Counted from the stretch's first letter, positions 1,236 to 10,179 are shown. The stretch: DNA of 10,179 nt from Janibacter sp. GXQ6167 (GCF_041365945.1 NZ_JBGFSK010000017.1:2555-12733), one strand, 5' to 3'. Translations and numbers: made by a program. Notes: generated by a model not told the origin, from the sequence alone.

Positions 1236-1653
1236 CGATAAGACGGGCGACGTTGCGGCTGACGAGTTCGTCGCGCATCGCGCGGGTCAGGGCGGCGGAC
1301 AGTACGGTGCGGAACTTCTGTGCGGTGCGGATTGAGTGGCCCTCGTCGAGCAGCGCGCAGGCGGCGTTCTGCACGTCGCGCACGGTGAGCTGGGTCAGGC
1401 GCTTGCTGCCGATGCGAGGAAGGATGTGCAGTCGCACGACGCCCTCGTATCCCCGTGCGGTGTTGCGTCGGTTGCGGCGCGGCACGACTGTCTCTAGCCA
1501 CTGCTGCAGATAGCCGGCGACCGTGACCTGTGAGTTCGGGGTCAGGATGCCGCGGCCCTCGTGCCGCGGCCCGCCCGGGCGCTTGCGTCGCCTTGCGACC
1601 CGCCGGATCGGCTCGAAAAGACGTTCTGTGGTATATCTATTACGAGAGGCCAT
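1236..1653 (-). pseudogene. Tyrosine recombinase/phage integrase, N-terminal SAM-like (core-binding) domain only; catalytic domain removed by the IS insertion
   Basis: Part of track ORF 1204-1857 (-). The segment TVAGYLQQWLETVVPRRNRRNTARGYEGVVRLHILPRIGSKRLTQLTVRDVQNAACALLDEGHSIRTAQKFRTVLSAALTRAMRDELVSRNVARLI matches the integrase N-terminal SAM-like pattern. The last 11 codons and the stop (GLFTNEGVVG*) are encoded by the IS terminal repeat. ATG at 1653 is the first plausible start. No R..HxxR..Y catalytic domain is present. Confidence 0.85.
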
Positions 1654-1661
1654 ATACAGGA
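1635..1661 (+). promoter_or_regulatory. AT-rich motif copy A (ATCTATT-N7-GCCATATACAGGA), upstream of the six-gene cluster; candidate operator or promoter element
   Basis: ATCTATT lies at 1635-1641 and GCCATATACAGGA at 1649-1661. The same 7-mer and 13-mer occur contiguously on the minus strand at 9283-9264, upstream of the XRE gene. This is one of very few AT-rich patches in the window. The site lies ~55 nt upstream of the GTG start at 1715. Confidence 0.5.
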
Positions 1662-1714
1662 TGCACCTGGGCCTTGTCTGGGGGCTACCCAGATCGAGTC
1701 TGGAGGTGTACGGC

Positions 1715-2329
1715 GTGGCCGCGCGAGTCGTCGATGTGCGTTGTCCGGGATGCGGGAGCGCCTGGAGCACCAACCAGCAGTTCTGCCAGTACTGCGGTCG
1801 CCAGGTGCTGATCAGCTCGATGTCCGACCTGATCAGCCTGGAAGCGCGCGACCTCAAGAAGCACGTCCGTACCTACGAGGACGCGCTGGACGAGGGCGCC
1901 GATGATCCGAGCGTGCATGCGGCGCTCGGCATGTGCCTGCTCAAGCTGGGGCTGCGCGACAAGGCGCTGTCGCACTTCGAGGATGCGCTGCTCGATGACA
2001 TCGAGAACTCGGAACCGTACTTCTACGCCGCCGTCGCGTCGCTGGGTGGCAAGAAGCCGTTCCTGGTTCCGCTGGCTGGCATCCGCCGCGCGGAGGAGTA
2101 CCTCACGGCGGCGCTGCGGCTCGAGGAGCGCGGAATCTACGCCTACCTCTACGGGTACATCCGCTTCGACTACTACGAGCGCAAGTCGCTGAACGTCGAG
2201 CCGTCGTACCAGCACTACCTGCAGCAGGCAGTGCTTCGCGGTGTGACCGATCTGGACATCCAGACGCTGTTCGAGCTGCTGGAGATCGTCCCTTCGTCCG
2301 CTTCCATTCCGACCAGCGTTTCCGCCTGA
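1715..2329 (+). CDS. Zn-ribbon plus TPR-like repeat protein (hypothetical)
   Basis: Track ORF 1523-2329. I place the start at GTG 1715, which has GGAGG at 1702-1706 with an 8-nt spacer. In-frame alternatives are ATG 1661 and GTG 1736. The N-terminus carries CPGCGSAWSTNQQFCQYCG (CxxC-x11-CxxC zinc ribbon). HAALGMCLLKLGLRDKALSHFEDAL is a textbook TPR-like helix pair. The rest is helical and shows high-GC third-position codon use. Confidence 0.8.
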   Translation: MAARVVDVRCPGCGSAWSTNQQFCQYCGRQVLISSMSDLISLEARDLKKHVRTYEDALDEGADDPSVHAALGMCLLKLGLRDKALSHFEDALLDDIENSEPYFYAAVASLGGKKPFLVPLAGIRRAEEYLTAALRLEERGIYAYLYGYIRFDYYERKSLNVEPSYQHYLQQAVLRGVTDLDIQTLFELLEIVPSSASIPTSVSA

Positions 2330-2365
2330 CCCCTGTTCTAACCACCCGAGAGAGGTTCCTTCGCA

Positions 2366-3061
2366 ATGGCCATCAACTATGAGCGCAACAAGAAGTACTT
2401 CAAGCAGTCCAGCCCCAAGGCCGGCATCATCCTGATCGTGATCGGCCTGGTGCTGACGCTCGCCCTCCCCGAGGCGGGCAAGCTCGTCGGCATCCTGGGC
2501 ATCCTGGGTGGCGCGGCGCTGATCTACTTCCAGTTCGCGGGCAAGCCGAGCGACGCGGACATCGACTCGGACGCTGCTGCCGCCATCGCGGACGTGAAGA
2601 AGCGCGCGCTGGGCAAGCTCGGTCTGGACGAGGACGAGGTCAAGCTCATCGACCCGGTGATCGTTCACGGCTACTACTACAAGAACATCGCCTCGGGCGT
2701 GCAGGTCAAGCTCGGCAAGGACCGCGTCTTCCGTTCCTCGAACTACGAGGGCGTCGTGCTGTTCTTCAGCGAGCACCAGCTGCACGCGTTCAAGTTCCAG
2801 TTCTCTCTCGTCTCGCCGCAGGAGAGCCGCGAGCAGACCGACGAGTACTTCTACAAGGACGTCGTGTCGGTGGCGACGCAGTCGGAGACGTTCAAGATCA
2901 ACGACATCAAGGGCAACAGCCAGCAGGTCAACTTCGAGGAGTTCAAGCTCACCACCACGGGTGGCACCTCGATCACTTCGTCGATCCGCGACGAGGGCTC
3001 GGTCAGCCGCGTCATCTCCGGCGCGCGCAGCCTGATTCGCGAGAAGAAGATCGCGTCCTGA
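2366..3061 (+). CDS. Membrane protein: N-terminal 2-TM hairpin plus beta-rich soluble C-terminal domain (possibly PH-like); function unknown
   Basis: ATG 2366 has GAGAGAGG ~10 nt upstream. The TM segments are AGIILIVIGLVLTLALP and LVGILGILGGAALIYFQF (about 2420-2536). The C-domain has alternating strand-like segments (VIVHGYYY, VVLFFSEHQLHAFKFQFSL, EYFYKDVVSVAT, FKLTTTGGTSI). I recognise no catalytic motif. Confidence 0.85.
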   Translation: MAINYERNKKYFKQSSPKAGIILIVIGLVLTLALPEAGKLVGILGILGGAALIYFQFAGKPSDADIDSDAAAAIADVKKRALGKLGLDEDEVKLIDPVIVHGYYYKNIASGVQVKLGKDRVFRSSNYEGVVLFFSEHQLHAFKFQFSLVSPQESREQTDEYFYKDVVSVATQSETFKINDIKGNSQQVNFEEFKLTTTGGTSITSSIRDEGSVSRVISGARSLIREKKIAS

Positions 3062-3076
3062 CCCCGAGTTCTCTGC

Positions 3077-3115
3077 GTGCCGGGGCCGGTCGGCAGTCGC
3101 CACCGGCTCCGGCAC
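3077..3115 (+). promoter_or_regulatory. Intergenic GC-rich stem-loop (14-bp stem, 11-nt loop); possible partial terminator, attenuator or RNA-stability element
   Basis: GTGCCGGGGCCGGT (3077-3090) pairs with ACCGGCTCCGGCAC (3102-3115). There are 13 Watson-Crick pairs plus one G-U. It sits in the only sizeable intergenic gap of the cluster (3062-3156). No U-tract follows. Confidence 0.5.
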
Positions 3116-3156
3116 ACCAATTCCGCTGCCCGAGCGTGACGTGAGGAGTGTGCCGT

Positions 3157-5841
3157 ATGCCCGCAGGCGACGCGCCCCTGACGTTCACGCCTCTCGCGCA
3201 GGGTGAAGTAGCCGCTGCTACGGTGGTCGAGGTCGTCCGCATCCCGCACGTCTCCGTGCTGGGCGATGATCCGGCTGCCGAGCTGGTGCAGCAGTCCAAG
3301 CGGGACTTCGTCAGCCTGCTGTTCGAGGCGTACCAGTCGTACCGCGGACAGTACGAGGACGGCCCCGACCGAGCTAGCGACTGCGCTCTGGAACTGCTTT
3401 GGCAAGCACACCCCATTCAGGGCCAGCCGCACGCCGCCGACCTCACGCTATTCATCATCGTTCGCGCGATCGGCGCGAACCGGGACGACGCAGCGGCGGT
3501 TGTCAACGAGCTGCACGCTGTCGTGATCAGCGCGCTCACGCTCGGCGGCTTCGACTACGCAGATCGTCCTGCCTCCGCGATCGGCGCCCAGGCGGCGGAA
3601 CGGTCGGTTGCGCTCGTGAAGGAGGAGTGGATTGAGAACCTCGGCAACCAGATCCTGCCGAGCGCCTTCGCCTTCCACCGTATCCCCACGGGCAGCCGTG
3701 ATCTCTCACGTATCGCCAGCGCCCTAACCGAGGTGCCCGGTGCGTCCCTCTCGGTTCAGCTGATCCCGGCGACACTGGAGCCTGACGAGCGGACTGCTAT
3801 CGAGCAGCTGACGCTGGCGCTCACGACCCTCGCCAACGGTGTGACGGATCAGTCGATCGGTACCGTCAGCTTCACCGCGGCGAAGCGCCTCGCGGAGATG
3901 TACTCGTATCTGGAGGGGCACAAGGACTCGCCCCTGTTTCTGTTTAACGTCGTCGTCTCCGGGCCGAAGCTCGCCGTGCCGGTGATCGCCAACCGGGTGC
4001 TCGGTCACCTCTCCGCCGACGCCGAGGTAGGCGCGCTGGCGGCACGCTTCGTCGACGCCACAGCCCTGGTGCCACGAGGCGATGCGTCCTTCGTCGCTGC
4101 ACCGTGGCAGCTGAACGAGACGCTGCTCGACCAGACTCGTGATCCGTCGCTCTGGGCGGCGGGCCGCAATCCCGGTGAGGCATTCTACCGGCTGCCGTTC
4201 CTGCTGACGGCATTCGAGGCATCGGAGTTGTTCCGTCTGCCGATCGGCAGTGACACGGTCGGCGCCGGGCTGACGGTGAACACCACGACCCGGCACTCGC
4301 GCAACTACTCGGCCGGCGTGATCGGGAGCTCGAGCATCGAAGCCGGGCGACTCGCCGGGGCGGCCGAGGTCTCGATCGGGTTCGGGCATACCGACCTGAC
4401 CAAGCACGCTTTCGTCACGGGGACGCCCGGTTCGGGTAAGACGACGTTCACGGTCGGGCTGCTCGACCGGCTCTGGCACGAGCACGGCATCCCGTATCTG
4501 GTGATCGAGCCGGCGAAGAACGAGTACCGGGCGCTGATCGAGACGACGCCGGATCTGCAGGTGTTCACCCCGGGCAAGGATCATCTGTCTCCGCTTGTGC
4601 TGAACCCGTTCCTGCCGCCAGCGGGCGTGCGGGTGCAGAGCTACAAGTCGACCCTCAAGACGGCGTTCGCAGCCGCGGTCACGATGACGAGCCCCCTGGA
4701 CAAGATCTTCGAGGACGCCCTCTCAGCCACGTACTCGCGGTTTGGCTGGTTCGATGCCGACACAGCCGCCGATGGCCGTGAGGTGTTCTCTATCCGCGAC
4801 TTCCTGGCCGTTTTCCAGGAGACCTTCGTCCGCATCGGCTACACCGGAGACGCGGCCAACATCGGACGAGCAGGCCAGGTGCGCCTGCAGAGTCTGGTTG
4901 GCCTGTTCGACACCTACCCTTCGATCCCTGTCGAGGATCTGCTGTCGAAACCCACGGTAATCGAGCTGGCAGGGATCGAGAACAGCGACGACAAGGCCCT
5001 CTACATCGCGCTCATCCTGCTGCAGGTCCTCGCCTACGTGAACGCCAACGTCGCCGGCGACGGGAAACTCAAGCACGTCCTCCTGCTCGAAGAAGCCCAC
5101 GTCTTGCTCGACGCCGACGACGCCAGCGGACCGGGCGAAGCGGACCCCGCCGCGATTGCGAAGAAGCTGCTCAAACGCATGTTGGCCGAGATCCGCTCCT
5201 ACGGCGTCGGCATCATCGTGGCCGATCAGTCGCCACGCAAGGTCGGCTCGGACGTGGTGGCGCTCACGAACATCAAGCTCGGGTTCCGGCTGGTCGAGGC
5301 CGCAGACAAGGAGATCCTGGCCGAGAGCACCAACATGAGCGACGCGCAGCGCGAGCGGCTGGCGCGGCTCCGGCCGGGCGAGGCACTCCTGTTCTACGAC
5401 CGCCTCGAAGACCCCGAGGAGATCGCCACAGCCGACTGGCGCGCCCAGCGCGGCATCCCGACGTTCGTGTCCGATGAGGAGATCGCCCGAAAGGTCACTT
5501 ACTGGCAGCGGCACCCGGAACTGCTCATGCCATACCCGGAGAGCGCCTACATCGGGGGCTGGGACGCCTCGGTTGCCGGTGCGGGCAAGGAGATCGCCCG
5601 GCGCCTCTTCGCCGCGCACGTCCCGGCCGGCGATGTCGGCGTCAAGAGATTCGGCAGCATCTACCGGCAGCTCGATGCGTTCATCGCCGCCGAACTTCCC
5701 GCGTCGATCCCGAACACGCCGGCCCTGCGGCGAGCGGTCAAGGTCAACTTCCTGCGGCTGGTCAAGTACGAGTCGCAGATCCCACTGTCGGACGCCACGA
5801 TCCACAAGACCCTCGAAGCCGAGAGGAGCCGCACAGCATGA
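3157..5841 (+). CDS. HerA/FtsK-superfamily P-loop ATPase (DUF87/HerA-like C-terminal half) with a ~420-aa uncharacterised N-terminal region
   Basis: Track ORF 3148-5841. ATG 3157 is preferred, with GAGGAG at 3143-3148 and an 8-nt spacer. Walker A is GTPGSGKTT (4420-4446). YLVIEPAKNEYRAL follows it. Walker B is VLLLEEAH (5077-5100). IIVADQSPRKV, TNIKLGFRL and LRPGEALLF match the motif order of HerA-type hexameric ATPases. Confidence 0.93.
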   Translation: MPAGDAPLTFTPLAQGEVAAATVVEVVRIPHVSVLGDDPAAELVQQSKRDFVSLLFEAYQSYRGQYEDGPDRASDCALELLWQAHPIQGQPHAADLTLFIIVRAIGANRDDAAAVVNELHAVVISALTLGGFDYADRPASAIGAQAAERSVALVKEEWIENLGNQILPSAFAFHRIPTGSRDLSRIASALTEVPGASLSVQLIPATLEPDERTAIEQLTLALTTLANGVTDQSIGTVSFTAAKRLAEMYSYLEGHKDSPLFLFNVVVSGPKLAVPVIANRVLGHLSADAEVGALAARFVDATALVPRGDASFVAAPWQLNETLLDQTRDPSLWAAGRNPGEAFYRLPFLLTAFEASELFRLPIGSDTVGAGLTVNTTTRHSRNYSAGVIGSSSIEAGRLAGAAEVSIGFGHTDLTKHAFVTGTPGSGKTTFTVGLLDRLWHEHGIPYLVIEPAKNEYRALIETTPDLQVFTPGKDHLSPLVLNPFLPPAGVRVQSYKSTLKTAFAAAVTMTSPLDKIFEDALSATYSRFGWFDADTAADGREVFSIRDFLAVFQETFVRIGYTGDAANIGRAGQVRLQSLVGLFDTYPSIPVEDLLSKPTVIELAGIENSDDKALYIALILLQVLAYVNANVAGDGKLKHVLLLEEAHVLLDADDASGPGEADPAAIAKKLLKRMLAEIRSYGVGIIVADQSPRKVGSDVVALTNIKLGFRLVEAADKEILAESTNMSDAQRERLARLRPGEALLFYDRLEDPEEIATADWRAQRGIPTFVSDEEIARKVTYWQRHPELLMPYPESAYIGGWDASVAGAGKEIARRLFAAHVPAGDVGVKRFGSIYRQLDAFIAAELPASIPNTPALRRAVKVNFLRLVKYESQIPLSDATIHKTLEAERSRTA

Positions 5842-7019
5842 GCGACTACGGCACCGACATTGCAGACGCCCCCGTCGACACCGGCGCGGACGTCAGCGTG
5901 CCCGATACGACCGACTACGCCGACGAGCCGGTCGACCTGGCCGAGACCCCGCCCGAGTCGGAGGCGCCCGAGGCCGAGGAGGCGCCGCCCGCCGAAGACC
6001 TCTCGGAGCCCGCAGCAGATGAACTGAGCGGCACGGCGGAGACGCCGGCGGATGCGGAGGCACCCGTCGACCTGGGCGCGGCCCCGGAAACGGCCGACGC
6101 CGCCCCGGAACAGCCCCAGGACTGGCAGGAGGGCGAGGTCGTCGATCTCGGCGACGACGCTGCCCCCGACGCCCCGCAGGAGGACGAGACCGCCGAGGCG
6201 GACGATCCTGCCGGGCGCGACCTGGGTGATCCCGACCTGGCCGACAGCCCGGAGGCCGAGGCTCCCACGGATAGCGCCGGTGAGGATCTGACGACACCGA
6301 CGGACGACGAACCGGGCGCCGGTGATGCGCCGACTGACGCCGACGAGCAGGTACCTGAGGCGGCGGAGATTGAGCCCGAGGCCGCAAACGACGTGACGGA
6401 TGCCGAACCCGAGCCCAGGGTCGATGAGTTGACAGAGGCGGCCCGGGATGAGGCCCGCCCCGCCGACGAGCTGCGCGCCGAGTACTACGCCGACGTGGCT
6501 GATGTGCTGGCCGATGACACACCATCCGACGCCGAGCCGGTCGAGACGCAGGACACTCCCGGAGCAGACGCTGCCGAGGCGCCGGAGTCGAGCGATCACG
6601 CGGACGCCGCCAATGACCGCAGCAACTCCCCAGAGAACGAGGCACTGACCTCGGCGCTAGCCGAGAAAGGCCTGTCGCTGGAGCCGGTCGATCGCTTCGA
6701 CTACAGCGACAACCCGGTTCTCGGCTACCGCGAGTCCGCCCCGCCCGAAGACGTCGCGTACGCCGTCAACGCCTGGAACGACGAGATCGCGCCCGGCATC
6801 GCGGCCGGCGCGACCCGTGAGGACTTCGCCGCCTACGACCAGGAGCACGGCCTCGAAGGGCAGCGGCAGCTGGCCGGCGTCTACGACTACATGCTCGGCG
6901 GCGACGCGATCAAGAGCGGCGGAGAGCGCGAGGACGGATCGCTCGACGTCACCGGCGGCAGGCACCGCCTGGAACAGGCGCGTCTGAACGGCGTCCAGTA
7001 CCTGCCCGTGAGGAAGTAG
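5838..7019 (+). CDS. Hyper-acidic, low-complexity protein with a C-terminal ParB/Srx-like (GxHR) domain; function unknown
   Basis: ATG 5838 overlaps the ATPase stop (ATGA), and GAGGAG lies at 5823-5828. By hand count the first ~270 aa hold about 89 D/E, 6 R and 0 K, and are rich in P, A and T. The last ~115 aa are ordinary in composition. They end DGSLDVTGGRHRLEQARLNGVQYLPV, which resembles the ParB-N/sulfiredoxin-fold signature (x-G-x-H-R-x2-A-x4-G-x4-P-V). Confidence 0.85.
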   Translation: MSDYGTDIADAPVDTGADVSVPDTTDYADEPVDLAETPPESEAPEAEEAPPAEDLSEPAADELSGTAETPADAEAPVDLGAAPETADAAPEQPQDWQEGEVVDLGDDAAPDAPQEDETAEADDPAGRDLGDPDLADSPEAEAPTDSAGEDLTTPTDDEPGAGDAPTDADEQVPEAAEIEPEAANDVTDAEPEPRVDELTEAARDEARPADELRAEYYADVADVLADDTPSDAEPVETQDTPGADAAEAPESSDHADAANDRSNSPENEALTSALAEKGLSLEPVDRFDYSDNPVLGYRESAPPEDVAYAVNAWNDEIAPGIAAGATREDFAAYDQEHGLEGQRQLAGVYDYMLGGDAIKSGGEREDGSLDVTGGRHRLEQARLNGVQYLPVRK

Positions 7020-7056
7020 CCGACCCGGCATCCGATCCGACGAAAGCGAACACCGT

Positions 7057-8256
7057 ATGAAGATCTACGACGTCATCAAGAACGAGACCGGCCTTCTCAA
7101 CGACGGCCTGGGCTCGAAGGCCGTGCTGGCGTGGAAGTTCACCGGTGAGGACTTCAACGACAACACGCAGCTGATCGTCTCCGAATCGGAGGAGGCGATC
7201 TTCATCCGCGACGGCATCGCCGTGGCGACCTTCGGCGGCGGCCGCTACACGCTCAACAGCAACAACCACCCCTTCATCGGCAGGCTGAGGAACCTGCTCT
7301 CCGGCGGGGTGAGCGCGTTCAGCTCGCGGGTGTACTTCGTCAACATCGATCACAAGTTGGAACTGCTGTGGGGCACCGACAGCCCGATCCAGCTCCGCGA
7401 CCCGGTCTGGAGCCTGCAGACCAGCGTGCAGGCGCGCGGCTCGTACTCGATCCAGGTGACGGACTCCAAGAAGTTCCTGATCAAACTGCTCGGCACCAAC
7501 ATCCAGGTTTTCGACGAGCAGCAGCTCGCCGGCTACTTCCGCAGCGCCTTCTCGCAGCACATCCGCGGACAGATCGCCCGCTACATCCGCGACTCCGGCC
7601 AGGAGATCCTGGAGATCACCTCGGACATCGAGCTGCTGGCCGAGCAGCTGCACCCGAGGCTCGCACCGCTGCTGGATGAGTACGGCGTGAAGCTCGTCAA
7701 CTTCTACATCGCCGCGATCGACATCCCCACCGACGACCCGAACCGCCAAGTGCTGGAGAACTCGATCGCACAGAAGCAGGCCAAGCTGCAGAGCGCGCAG
7801 GGCGATAAGGCCGTCATGGGGCTGCTCGGGGAAGACTGGGCCAGGCAGCAGTCGGCCACCATCCTCACCGAGCTCGCCAAGAACCCCGGCGCGGGTGGCG
7901 TGGCTTCCGCGGGTGCCGCAGCAGGCGTTGGCCTGGCTGCGGGCAGCGTCTTCGGGGAGATGGCGACGCAGATGTTCACGCGCCCCGTCCAGCCCGCAGG
8001 CGACCCGATGGCTGGCAATGTCGGGCGCAACCGCACATCGCGCTTCTCGCCCGCAGAGCCTGCCGCGCCGGCCGCCGCCGAGACGTGTCCGGGCTGCGGC
8101 GCGAGCGTGGCGGCGGGAGCGAAGTTCTGCCCGGAGTGCGGCAACCGTCTCGCACCTCAGCAGGTGCCCTGCTCGGGTTGCGGAACCGCAATCGCGAGCA
8201 CGGCCAAGTTCTGCCCCGAATGCGGAACGCCGAACAACCAGGGAGCATCCTCATGA
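7057..8256 (+). CDS. SPFH/band-7 family protein of the YdjI (COG4260-like) type with a C-terminal double zinc ribbon
   Basis: The N-terminal ~235 aa (MKIYDVIKNE...WKFTGEDFNDNTQLIVSESEEAIFIRDG...YFVNIDHKLELLWGT...RGSYSIQVTD...VKLVNFYIAAIDIP) match the YdjI / virion-core-protein-like SPFH family pattern. A Gly/Ala-rich segment GAGGVASAGAAAGVGLAAGSVFG follows (about 7885-7956). Then come two ribbons, CPGCG-x9-FCPECG and CSGCG-x9-FCPECG (8086-8232). Confidence 0.93.
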   Translation: MKIYDVIKNETGLLNDGLGSKAVLAWKFTGEDFNDNTQLIVSESEEAIFIRDGIAVATFGGGRYTLNSNNHPFIGRLRNLLSGGVSAFSSRVYFVNIDHKLELLWGTDSPIQLRDPVWSLQTSVQARGSYSIQVTDSKKFLIKLLGTNIQVFDEQQLAGYFRSAFSQHIRGQIARYIRDSGQEILEITSDIELLAEQLHPRLAPLLDEYGVKLVNFYIAAIDIPTDDPNRQVLENSIAQKQAKLQSAQGDKAVMGLLGEDWARQQSATILTELAKNPGAGGVASAGAAAGVGLAAGSVFGEMATQMFTRPVQPAGDPMAGNVGRNRTSRFSPAEPAAPAAAETCPGCGASVAAGAKFCPECGNRLAPQQVPCSGCGTAIASTAKFCPECGTPNNQGASS

Positions 8257-8930
8257 CCCGCACGATCCTGCGCGCCATCCTGTGGCTCGTCCCCATCGCC
8301 GTCTACGTCGCCATCTTCCTCATCCTCGAGGCCCCGCAGGGCGCGACGTTCTGGACGTCCGCACTGCTGCTGGCGTTCGCCTACGTCATGCTCGCCGTCA
8401 GTTTCGTCGCCGTGCCGCGCAGTCGGATAGCCGCGATCCTGGCCATGCCCCTGATCCTGGTGGCGAGCATCTACTTCACTGCCGAGCTCATCGCGGCCAG
8501 CATCTTCATCTACGTGCAGGACATTCCATACCCGTGGGTGATCATCACGCAGCTGATCCTGGCCGCGATCTTCCTCGTCGTGTTCCTCACCACCTTGTTG
8601 TCCAACGAGGCCATCGCCGCCCAGATCGAGACCCAGCACGCCGACGTCCTGGTGATCAAGAGCGCCGTCACCCGCATCACGGCCCTGGGACGTGTCGCCC
8701 ACGATCCGCGCCTGGCGAAGTCGCTGGACGGGCTGGCCGAGGAGTTCCGCTACAGCCCGACGATGCGCTCGAACCAGGTGCGCGAAGTCGACGCGCAGAT
8801 CGCCGTGCAGCTCGAGCGACTGGAGAGCCTCGTCCACATCCAAGCTTCGCAAGAGGATACCGTCGGCCAGATCGCGGCGATATCCGGGGCGCTCGCTTCA
8901 CGCAACGAGGCGATCAAGCTCCGCCAGTAG
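8253..8930 (+). CDS. Integral membrane protein (4 predicted TM helices) with a helical C-terminal domain; function unknown
   Basis: ATG 8253 overlaps the SPFH stop (ATGA), and GGGAG lies 7 nt upstream. There are four long hydrophobic segments (ILRAILWLVPIAVYVAIFLIL, FWTSALLLAFAYVMLAVSFVAV, IAAILAMPLILVASIYFTAELIAASIFIYV, WVIITQLILAAIFLVVFLTTLL). About 110 aa of amphipathic helix follow. The longer track ORF from 8085 overlaps the SPFH gene out of frame, so I reject it. Confidence 0.85.
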   Translation: MTRTILRAILWLVPIAVYVAIFLILEAPQGATFWTSALLLAFAYVMLAVSFVAVPRSRIAAILAMPLILVASIYFTAELIAASIFIYVQDIPYPWVIITQLILAAIFLVVFLTTLLSNEAIAAQIETQHADVLVIKSAVTRITALGRVAHDPRLAKSLDGLAEEFRYSPTMRSNQVREVDAQIAVQLERLESLVHIQASQEDTVGQIAAISGALASRNEAIKLRQ

Positions 8931-9226
8931 GAGGAGGTGCATAGGGCAGACCCGCGCGCAGATCCGGCCACGGCTGCGGCACCAGCTGGTCGAGCGTGAC
9001 ACCGAGCACCTGCGCGATGGCCATGATCTTGCGCAGACTCGGGTTGGCCGGAGTCTCCGGCATCGACTCGCCCTTCTCGAACTTCTGGAAGGTGTAGCGC
9101 GTGAGCCCAGCGGCGTAGGCAACCTGCTCCTGGGTGAGTCCACGGTCGATCCGGTGCCGCTGAATGCTGGCACCAAGTTCGCGCGCGTACTGGGGCCAAG
9201 GGCCATCGGGTCGTCGTTTTTGCCAT
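8914..9226 (-). pseudogene. XRE-family helix-turn-helix transcriptional regulator, apparent +1 frameshift near the 5' end (or assembly indel)
   Basis: Not in the ORF track. The minus-strand frame open from 9225 to 8917 encodes ...PQYARELGASIQRHRIDRGLTQEQVAYAAGLTRYTFQKFEKGESMPETPANPSLRKIMAIAQVLGVTLDQLV...*. This is a classic Cro/C1-type HTH, but it has no start codon upstream of the HTH. ATG at 9226-9224 is in the adjacent frame. Deleting one A from the AAAAA run (9216-9220, plus-strand TTTTT) gives an intact 103-aa protein beginning MAKRRPDGPWPQYARELG. The span is 313 nt, which is 3n+1. Confidence 0.75.
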
Positions 9227-9263
9227 CACCCCAGGCTGAGCAGGTGGCCTCCCGGAACGAACC

Positions 9264-9283
9264 TCCTGTATATGGCAATAGAT
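9264..9283 (-). promoter_or_regulatory. AT-rich motif copy B (ATCTATTGCCATATACAGGA), upstream of the XRE gene; candidate operator or promoter element
   Basis: The reverse complement of 9264-9283 is ATCTATTGCCATATACAGGA. It is identical to copy A apart from the 7-nt insert in A. It lies 38 nt upstream of the XRE ATG, in the same orientation relative to its gene as copy A. Confidence 0.5.
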
Positions 9284-9376
9284 CCGCTCGATCAGTAACC
9301 CCGCGTGGCCGTCGGCGACGATAGGCGCATGAATGAAGAAGGCCCGGGAGCCGCTCCAGCCGAGAACTCGTGGTTC

Positions 9377-9919
9377 TCAAGGCCGGGGCGAACTCCCGAG
9401 CAGGGCGTGCAGCTGATGGCTGGCTGGTGAGACGGCGCGAATGCGGGTCTCGTGGAGGGCGGGGTCGTGCGTGCGCAGGTACATCGCCCAGAACGCCGCG
9501 TCGGCATACGTTGTGTGCAGATCTGACTGCGCCCGCCAGCCGCTCGAAGCGGTGCGCCGGTAGCCGACTTCGTAAGGGCCGCCATGCAGGAGTTCCTGCA
9601 CGAGTGATGCCGGGACGTCACCGACCGGGTAGGTGCTGCCGATATCGCCCACGAGGAGCACGTCGCCGTGCAACGCCGGCCGCTGCCTTGAAGTGGTGTC
9701 CCAGAACCAGCGCAGCGACGAGGCGCGCAGGTTCATCGGGAGCCCGTTTCGGCGGTCGTCGGCGTCGAGCCACATCGTGACACCTCGGCTCTCGATGTCG
9801 ATCGGGATCACCAGATCAGCGAGCTGCTGAATGTCTGCGAACCCTGCGACCTCCCGCGTTTCGAGTTGTTGCTCGATCTGCGCCGGGATGAGAACAGCCG
9901 TGACGGTCTCACCATTCAC
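9377..9919 (-). CDS. Hypothetical protein with an N-terminal DUF3846-like domain
   Basis: Track ORF with a GTG start at 9919. VTAVLIPAQIEQQLETREVAGFADIQQLADLVIPIDIESRGVTMWLDADDRRNGLPMNLRAS...GDVLLVGDIG follows the DUF3846 pattern as I recall it (ALLIP...V..LQ.LVGG.IE......LW.NEEG...GLP.N.RA....G..l..G). The C-terminal ~80 aa are unassigned. Confidence 0.6.
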   Translation of the reverse strand: MNGETVTAVLIPAQIEQQLETREVAGFADIQQLADLVIPIDIESRGVTMWLDADDRRNGLPMNLRASSLRWFWDTTSRQRPALHGDVLLVGDIGSTYPVGDVPASLVQELLHGGPYEVGYRRTASSGWRAQSDLHTTYADAAFWAMYLRTHDPALHETRIRAVSPASHQLHALLGSSPRP

Positions 9920-10179
9920 GACGGCTCACCCGCAGTGAGGCAGTAGTGCCCCGTAGCGTGGTGTAGCCCGCGGTGGCCGGCTCGTCGTTCGCGACGTAGG
10001 CGCGGTCACCGTGTGATCCTTCGAGAAGTCTCTTACCTCCACTCGAAAGGCATCATCACGATGACCGCTCCTCATATTGTCGACAGTGAGGATGGGTTTT
10101 GGCATCCCCGGGTGGAGGTCTGACTCGATTGTCGACGGGCGTCAGCGACTGCCTTTGCATGGGATTCGTCGATCTTCAG

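Follow-up and report, generated by a model that had tools for sequence, protein, structure and literature searches.

Why should the same 13-nucleotide (nt) sequence stand before two convergent transcription units, pointing the same way relative to each of them? This question is raised by a 10,179-nt stretch of DNA from Janibacter sp. GXQ6167 (NZ_JBGFSK010000017.1:2555-12733), called the window throughout, which contains a six-gene operon encoding a HerA-type ATPase and an SPFH protein (+ strand) and, convergent with it, the gene of an XRE-family helix-turn-helix (HTH) regulator (8917-9226, - strand). The 13-mer GCCATATACAGGA occurs as an exact match 5' of the operon (copy A, 1649-1661, + strand) and again 5' of the XRE gene (copy B, 9264-9276, - strand). 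The comparisons described below suggest that it is a conserved regulatory site. We consider it probable, at roughly 0.6 on the strength of sequence comparison, that this site is an operator of the XRE protein, through which the regulator would control both its own gene and the HerA/SPFH operon, repressing both.

Two copies of a 13-mer and their distribution

On the + strand, copy A is preceded by ATCTATT (1635-1641) and ACGAGAG (1642-1648), and on the - strand positions 9283-9264 hold the uninterrupted 20-mer ATCTATTGCCATATACAGGA. Two hexamers, CACCTG (1664-1669) and CTGGGG (1678-1683), lie 3' of copy A and recur 3' of copy B. The end of copy A is 53 nt from the GTG of gene 1 at 1715, and the end of copy B is 37 nt from the ATG of the XRE gene at 9226. 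Re-reading both sites confirmed the sequences, coordinates and follow-on hexamers reported in a first-pass annotation of the window, as well as its observation that both copies have the same orientation relative to their own downstream gene.

The same annotation held that such a match would be unlikely to arise by chance in GC-rich DNA. Within the window alone this argument is weaker than it was stated to be, and the match is mildly unusual. About nine distinct exact inverted matches of at least 13 nt are present in the window, Markov-1 random sequences contain 5.8 inverted 13-mer pairs on average, and 8.5% of these random sequences include an A/T-rich inverted 13-mer (at least 7 A/T); for this particular 13-mer with up to two mismatches, 0.04 matches are expected. 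Since exact inverted 13-mers are common in a GC-rich window, the significance of the pair rests on comparison with other loci, and the comparative evidence does show more than chance. A weight matrix trained solely on the XRE-upstream sites of other loci, with the sites of the window excluded, ranked 9277(-) first with 25.7 bits and 1648(+) second with 16.3 bits, the next score being 8.1. A score of 16.3 bits was reached anywhere in 1.5% of 1000 randomised windows (p ~0.015 for the second site). Alignment of the two upstream regions of the window to each other revealed nothing beyond the motif, which indicates that the likeness is specific to the site and is not that of a duplicated promoter.

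Comparison of XRE orthologues (loci are denoted by L numbers) disclosed a motif at a fixed place. TGCCAnAT.....AGG is invariant 36-38 nt 5' of the XRE start codon in nine loci whose proteins span 94-48% identity: the window, L018, L006, L015, L021 from Microbacterium, L024 from Bifidobacterium, L027/L054 from Herbiconiux, L028 from Microbacterium and L055, the Microbacterium locus with the most distant orthologue (48% protein identity). The DNA farther upstream is unalignable among these nine loci and their neighbour genes differ. The orthologues in unrelated contexts are those of Microbacterium L021-L023 (beside a DUF6907 gene), Bifidobacterium L024-L026, Herbiconiux L027/L054, Microbacterium L028 and Microbacterium L055. 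Over the same range of identity the proteins carry HTH_3 (PF01381) and HTH_31 (PF13560), NCBIfam and PHROG repressor or antitoxin HTH models match XRE residues 14-85, and the predicted recognition helix, GL(T/S)RYT(F/Y)QKFEKGES, is nearly invariant.

The motif is also tied to the operon. The XRE homologue P0001 was found on eleven Logan contigs (L006-L014) and P0002 on L015, all with the XRE gene and the six-gene arrangement, and a metagenome scan with the ATPase added L016-L020. In blastn comparisons, collinear matches to the window cover its positions 1577-9941 for L018, 1577-9933 for L006 and 1733-9168 for L015. Every locus with both the XRE gene and the cluster (the window, L006/L007, L018 and L015) has two copies of GCCAYATA and no more, one in each of the upstream regions, in the orientation of the gene that follows. 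L016 shares 1698-8932 only, that is, the six genes without the promoter region and without the XRE gene; there the operon neighbours a ThiF-family gene and a TnsA-like/sigma-70 region 4 gene, and the 22.7 kb of L016 contain zero occurrences of GCCAYATA. The motif that the first-pass annotation had noticed before the cluster is fixed at that place wherever the XRE gene is adjacent, and it is absent in L016, the sole lineage that has the cluster minus the XRE gene. In a five-lineage alignment, GAGGCCAyATACA is the longest invariant block 5' of gene 1. Copy A is conserved at 10-13 of 13 positions in L018, L006, L017 and L015, with flank identity dropping to about 45% (L015 itself has 10/13, with flanks of about 45%); for the 13-mer in general, 10-13 of 13 positions are kept in relatives with flanks of 15-45% identity.

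Judged from these sequences, the 13-mer is part of a tandem, non-palindromic array of 14-base-pair (bp) units with the consensus GCCAyATAnnnGAG. An offset scan with a matrix of unit 1, the distal unit on the XRE side, found direct repeats in 14-bp phase at both sites. For the XRE-upstream regions, scanned with a leave-one-out matrix, the scores peaked at +14 (mean +7.0) and weakly at +28 (-7.3) over a background of about -17; for the cluster-upstream regions (four sequences) the best non-zero offset was -14, with a score of -1.1 and a background of about -19. On the XRE side, the strong distal unit, represented here by copy B, comes first, and one or two weaker units extend from it nearly as far as the ribosome-binding site. 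In the window these are two further in-phase units, GTTCGTTCCGGGAG and GCCACCTGCTCAGC (9235-9262, - strand; offsets +14 and +28). Unit 2 is a clear repeat in L024 (GCCATATATAGGAG followed by GCCATATGAACGAG), in L028 (GCCACATACGAGAG followed by GCCATATAATGGGG) and in L021 (GCTATATAGGAGAG); in the lineage of the window both further units, GTTCGTTCCGGGAG as unit 2 among them, are degenerate. A tandem array filling the space up to the ribosome-binding site would explain why the distance of 36-38 nt is kept without insertions or deletions.

On the gene 1 side, one weak unit, ATCTATTACGAGAG (1635-1648, + strand; offset -14), precedes one strong, promoter-proximal unit, which is copy A. Arrays that can be compared with it read TTGCCACATACGAGAG followed by GCCATATAAT in L028 and TAGTTATACAGGAG followed by GCCACATACA in L015. 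Both arrays of the window are co-oriented with transcription. The weak unit consists of ATCTATT and ACGAGAG; the latter had been described as a 7-nt insert between two parts of one motif, a description that the 14-bp tandem array replaces.

The ATCTATT half had also been counted as part of the shared motif. Its match at both window sites stands, and its membership in the conserved element does not: beside copy B (9277-9283, - strand) it is a lineage-specific match outside that element, retained at 6/7 positions in L018, 4/7 in L006 and 2-4/7 in more distant loci. Whole at both sites of the window, it is present as CTATT at both sites of L018 (8486-8492 and about 16143-16149) and at neither site of L006, and its phase differs by 7 nt between the two window sites. 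Chance is an unlikely source of the shared heptamer; gene conversion between the sites and lineage-specific selection are possibilities. Farther 5' of copy A, the alignment disclosed a conserved box, GTTCTGTGGTAT (1623-1634, + strand), in which GGTA is invariant in five lineages and positions 1629-1634 are conserved at 5-6 of 6 even in L015 and L017. This box may be a promoter element.

The regulator itself would comprise 103 amino acids (aa) once its reading frame is repaired. Translations of the window show the frame broken at codons 3-4 by one extra A in an A5 run (9217-9221). With four A's the gene encodes MAKRRPDGPWPQYARELG..., and the repaired protein is 94% identical to P0001 (beginning MAKRRPDGPW). 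The extra A is unlike all relatives, L021 having GTGGCAAAACGACGACCC at this place, and a TGA directly upstream in the HTH frame leaves the gene without an alternative start. Either the regulator gene is genuinely null in this strain, or the homopolymer was misread in sequencing. L018 has a further XRE paralogue, a distant one with 45% identity across 75 aa, at 6982-7209, about 1.3 kb 5' of the operon, with no strong motif copy adjoining it.

Operator, promoter element or RNA signal

The XRE protein is the sole protein that is consistently linked to the motif, and the most economical reading is therefore that the arrays are its operators and the XRE protein their putative binding partner. According to this model, XRE would bind both arrays, probably cooperatively as dimers or multimers. 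Bound protein would repress its own promoter, which amounts to autoregulation, and would also repress the operon promoter, so that the operon would stay low until the repressor is lost or inactivated. Repression is the effect we favour, because of the analogy to XRE proteins that regulate operons of mobile elements, toxin-antitoxin systems and defence; the positions of both promoters are those we infer. Should the frameshift in the XRE gene be real, the operon would be derepressed in this strain. The first-pass annotation had likewise preferred a shared operator or promoter through which XRE acts on both units. The sharing of the site is borne out by its fixed place 5' of XRE orthologues in unrelated contexts, and for binding and the direction of regulation we infer what this linkage suggests.

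Several observations weigh against an XRE operator. C-boxes and most XRE operators are palindromic, and the 13-mer with its flanks displays no conserved inverted symmetry. The 14-bp period corresponds to 1.3 helical turns, which is unusual for cooperative binding. Scans for sigma-70-type consensus promoters found none at either site, and an overlap of operator and promoter is thus not demonstrable. Within 10 kb of the other XRE orthologues, L054 included, there is no second copy of the motif. Finally, the sample is small, comprising six cluster lineages, four of which have 83-92% identity to the window. A general rule by which XRE orthologues would act on the convergent neighbour by way of another motif copy was also considered; it fails in Herbiconiux L054, which has no second copy. 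Given that the other orthologues have none, control of a neighbouring operon would be specific to the HerA/SPFH cluster and not a general property of the family.

The strongest competing explanation dispenses with XRE binding: the two units would be co-expressed because they share a non-canonical core-promoter element or bind another factor of the host, which might be an alternative sigma factor or a global regulator. We regard this as a possibility of clearly lower standing, although one that a strictly fixed 36-38 nt to the XRE start codon and the same orientation to transcription at both sites would suit. TTGCCA/ATGCCA does resemble a -35 hexamer, yet the cluster-side copy reads GGCCA and not TTGCCA; similarly, unit 2 of L028 includes a perfect TATAAT, but no hexamer in the motif or 16-19 nt downstream fits TAnnnT consistently across loci. 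As candidate elements, TTGCCA at -35 and CATATA at -10 both fail across loci. What chiefly separates the two explanations is the distribution of the motif, which tracks the XRE family through Micrococcales and Bifidobacteriales hosts in unrelated neighbourhoods and is missing from the same operon where the XRE gene is missing, arguing for a linked protein over a host factor.

It is improbable that the motif acts instead in the RNA of both 5' leaders, through base pairing with the start-codon region (for UUGCCAU, with AUGGCAA) or through recognition by a protein or small RNA. The minimum-free-energy fold of the window does pair UUGCCAU with AUGGCAA at the XRE start, but fold energies are at the level of shuffled sequences (z-scores -0.11 to +0.16), and TGCCA is invariant in L024, L027, L028 and L055 despite starts that cannot pair with it (ATGTCG, ATGCCC, ATGTCA and GTGAGC), so that covariation is lacking. 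An AGGAGG within copy B could likewise speak for a role in RNA, yet the upstream open reading frames (ORFs) that follow it are not conserved, the one after copy B occurring in L006 alone, with the other loci having it in another frame or not at all, and no Rfam match was obtained.

Separately, the leader of gene 1 contains the hairpin CTGGG-GGCTA-CCCAG (1678-1692), which is conserved in L018, L006 and L017; at the equivalent place L015 has a different hairpin, GCGAT-GGG-ATCGC (about 8456-8444, - strand). This may be a structurally conserved stem of the 5' untranslated region, the fold of the whole leader being no better than shuffled.

The operon, its flanks and the cassette question

The first-pass annotation had offered a second explanation, in which the two copies are the terminal inverted repeats of a 7.6-kb mobile cassette (1635-9283); the inversion of the copies and the mobile debris near them (an integrase relic and fragments of ISL3 and IS256 type) would suit it. 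This is refuted by synteny with L018 and L006, which crosses both copies, and we give it next to no weight. The shared block begins 58 nt before copy A, at 1577, and continues for at least 650 nt past copy B, and the operon-only block of L016 ends at 1698 and 8932, inside both copies. Copy B keeps its fixed distance 5' of XRE orthologues that lack any cassette, none of the seven intervening genes encodes a transposase domain, and the flanking octamers, TGTGGTAT and CCGCTCGA, differ and thus form no target duplication. A pattern search for ATCTATT-N(0-8)-GCCATATACAGGA in 185,579 reference genomes, which bears on cassette ends and on a dispersed repeat alike, returned three chance matches only, in Clostridium, an Acutalibacteraceae genome and Nostoc; these are unrelated and low in GC, and the source species is evidently absent from the reference set.

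Equally remote is a phase-variable switch in which an integrase would invert the segment between the copies as crossover sites, an idea invited by the inverted repeats and by the tyrosine-recombinase ORF abutting copy A, but opposed by an integrase reduced to a 107-codon relic without arm-binding and catalytic domains, by the collinearity of all five lineages and eleven contigs that have both copies, with no inverted isoform, and by relatives that have the motif pair without a nearby integrase (L006 has an SBP gene there).

The tyrosine integrase relic, of which only the SAM-like N-terminal domain is left, occupies 1236-1556 (- strand; blastn against L004), outside the regulatory module and at the left rearrangement breakpoint. 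It forms part of a chimeric ORF of 149 aa (1204-1653, - strand), the product of which is entered at NCBI, with 100% identity, as a 'hypothetical protein' of Janibacter sp. GXQ6167. By BLASTP, residues 34-129 of this ORF match residues 129-224 of P0107 with 94% identity, its first 33 codons are promoter DNA of the adjoining operon, and neither the arm-binding N-terminus of P0107 (GEGTITLRKDGRWEA...) nor any catalytic domain has a counterpart in it. The missing domains indicate that the integrase is a relic and that the ATG at 1653 is not its native start. The first-pass annotation had suspected a truncated 5' end of the integrase and was right in this, but it placed the truncation at the motif; the breakpoint lies about 80 nt to the left. 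The junction that separates the relic from the conserved promoter block falls at about 1556-1577, and what the ATG at 1653 opens is the chimeric ORF.

Other debris was observed at both ends of the window. The left end consists of a group II intron reverse-transcriptase fragment (1-612) and an ISL3-type transposase fragment (604-1238) that abuts the chimeric ORF. On the right, 9948-10084 resembles IS256-family transposase regions of Microbacterium and Kocuria plasmids (83-87% identity). This stretch starts where the synteny with L006 and L018 ends (9933 and 9941), and the conserved block is therefore bounded by insertion sequence debris on both sides. A phage element was considered and rejected, as phage records yielded no match to the window. 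In viral contigs, the degenerate motif was matched 25 times, always where GC content was low and an XRE homologue was lacking, and an XRE profile search of the viral contigs revealed no real relative.

Upstream of the XRE gene, a perfect hairpin, GAGAAC-TCGTG-GTTCTC (9362-9378), overlaps the stop codon of a DUF3846-like gene (9377-9919, - strand). It is kept in L006 and L018 and lacks a T-run. This hairpin may be a terminator or a processing signal that separates the DUF3846-like gene from the XRE promoter.

The operon opens with a zinc-ribbon and TPR protein (gene 1, 1715-2329, + strand; weak Pfam matches to DZR, Zn_ribbon and TPR), which has a GTG start and a GGAGG ribosome-binding site at 1702-1706, 8 nt upstream. 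Its tblastn matches begin at the GTG at 1715 in six lineages; an N-terminal extension from the in-frame ATG at 1661 was rejected, as L015 lacks this ATG and L017 has it in another frame. Gene 2 (2366-3061, + strand) encodes a predicted membrane protein of 231 aa without a family match that is conserved in L006, L015 and L020. The third gene (3157-5841, + strand) specifies a HerA/FtsK-like P-loop ATPase of 894 aa (Pfam DUF87/HerA), with its start placed at M4 by alignment, partial PADLOC matches to HerA and mad8, and NCBIfam CedD/HerA below the cut-off. It is followed by a very acidic 393-aa protein without a family match (gene 4, 5838-7019, + strand), by an SPFH/Band-7 protein with a C-terminal double zinc ribbon (gene 5, 7057-8256, + strand; Pfam Band_7_1, E=1.3e-33, and DZR) and by a membrane protein of 225 aa (gene 6, 8253-8930, + strand) that matches a 225-aa gene in L006 and L015 and overlaps the XRE gene by 14 nt at its 3' end. 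At least six lineages have retained the six genes together, and in one of these, L016, the surrounding genes differ. PADLOC found no complete system in the operon, the partial HerA and mad8 ATPase matches being the sole ones, and exact-protein look-ups of gene 2, gene 5 and P0106 returned no record. The operon may represent an undescribed defence or membrane-stress system.

Implications and comparison with known regulators

If the arrays are indeed XRE operators, the uncharacterised six-gene HerA-ATPase/SPFH operon of several actinobacterial lineages would gain a testable handle, made up of a defined operator, a candidate repressor and a natural repressor-null allele. The regulation would be of an ordinary kind, with a tandem and asymmetric operator layout that is somewhat unusual, and the locus would add a further example of a small XRE protein reading tandem asymmetric repeats and not a palindrome. 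Two corrections to annotation are also made here: the ORF of the 149-aa 'hypothetical protein', with its start codon inside the motif, joins promoter DNA to an integrase relic, and the inverted repeat is not usable to call a mobile cassette.

A Herbiconiux locus (L054 10001-16815, CP053344.1) has an XRE orthologue, 74% identical, that is convergent with a five-gene SMODS/S_4TM/EC042_2821 operon; this operon is divergent from an intact tyrosine integrase, with modules of AbiE and HipA farther on. The window has the same succession of XRE, cargo and integrase, although its integrase is not a close relative, and this shared order suggests a recurrent island architecture. A broader and rather doubtful proposal makes the XRE family, with its tandem, non-palindromic 14-bp operator, the conserved point of regulation around which a class of actinobacterial islands could be built; variable defence-like cargo would be slotted convergently to the XRE gene, often opposite an integrase. 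The HerA/SPFH/zinc-ribbon operon in the window and the SMODS/S_4TM operon in Herbiconiux could then be examples of such cargo, and HerA-SPFH, wired through an acquired operator copy, could be a new, repressor-gated and possibly toxic defence system that the frameshift has unlocked here.

Among known systems, the locus is most readily set beside autoregulated Cro/CI-type (XRE) repressors, including the C proteins of restriction-modification systems and the XRE proteins found beside defence or toxin-antitoxin operons. Like these, the protein is a small, single-domain HTH_3/HTH_31 regulator of about 100 aa, a conserved site lies just 5' of the regulator gene and is repeated at the promoter region of the adjacent operon, and the cargo beside it looks defence-like. 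In contrast, the site here is without the dyad symmetry of Cro/CI-type operators, and the regulator gene does not lead the operon but runs towards it and overlaps it at the 3' end. The dimer sites of C.Esp1396I are 15 bp apart from centre to centre (PMC2995052), close to the 14-bp phase seen here. A PDB search of the XRE protein disclosed no relationship to solved C proteins, its best match being an unrelated HTH protein (E=5e-4).

Two repressors that read non-palindromic sites were also compared. The C repressor of phage P2 (99 aa) recognises non-palindromic direct repeats spanning the early promoter, with 8-bp half-sites 22 bp apart from centre to centre (PMC2995052). The XRE module resembles it in that a small HTH repressor apparently reads direct, non-palindromic repeats at a promoter region, but the half-sites of P2 C are 2 to 3 helical turns apart, whereas the units here abut with a 14-bp period. 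P2 C (PDB 2xcj) was not among the PDB matches of the XRE protein, and the two have no detectable sequence similarity. The repressor of Cluster A mycobacteriophages (L5-type) binds asymmetric 13-bp operators and stoperators that are oriented with transcription (PMC9283540); the actinobacterial host and an asymmetric 13-mer oriented with transcription at every copy are common to both systems. Unlike the single HTH of the 103-aa XRE protein, the L5-type monomers have about 183 aa and two DNA-binding domains, and they act on more than 20 sites across a phage genome, whereas two sites per locus and no phage context were found here. Spacing, protein size and domains, number of sites and the lack of detectable homology thus place the XRE module outside the P2 C and L5-type families, which stand as precedents for small HTH repressors acting on direct repeats (PMC2995052) or asymmetric 13-mers (PMC9283540).

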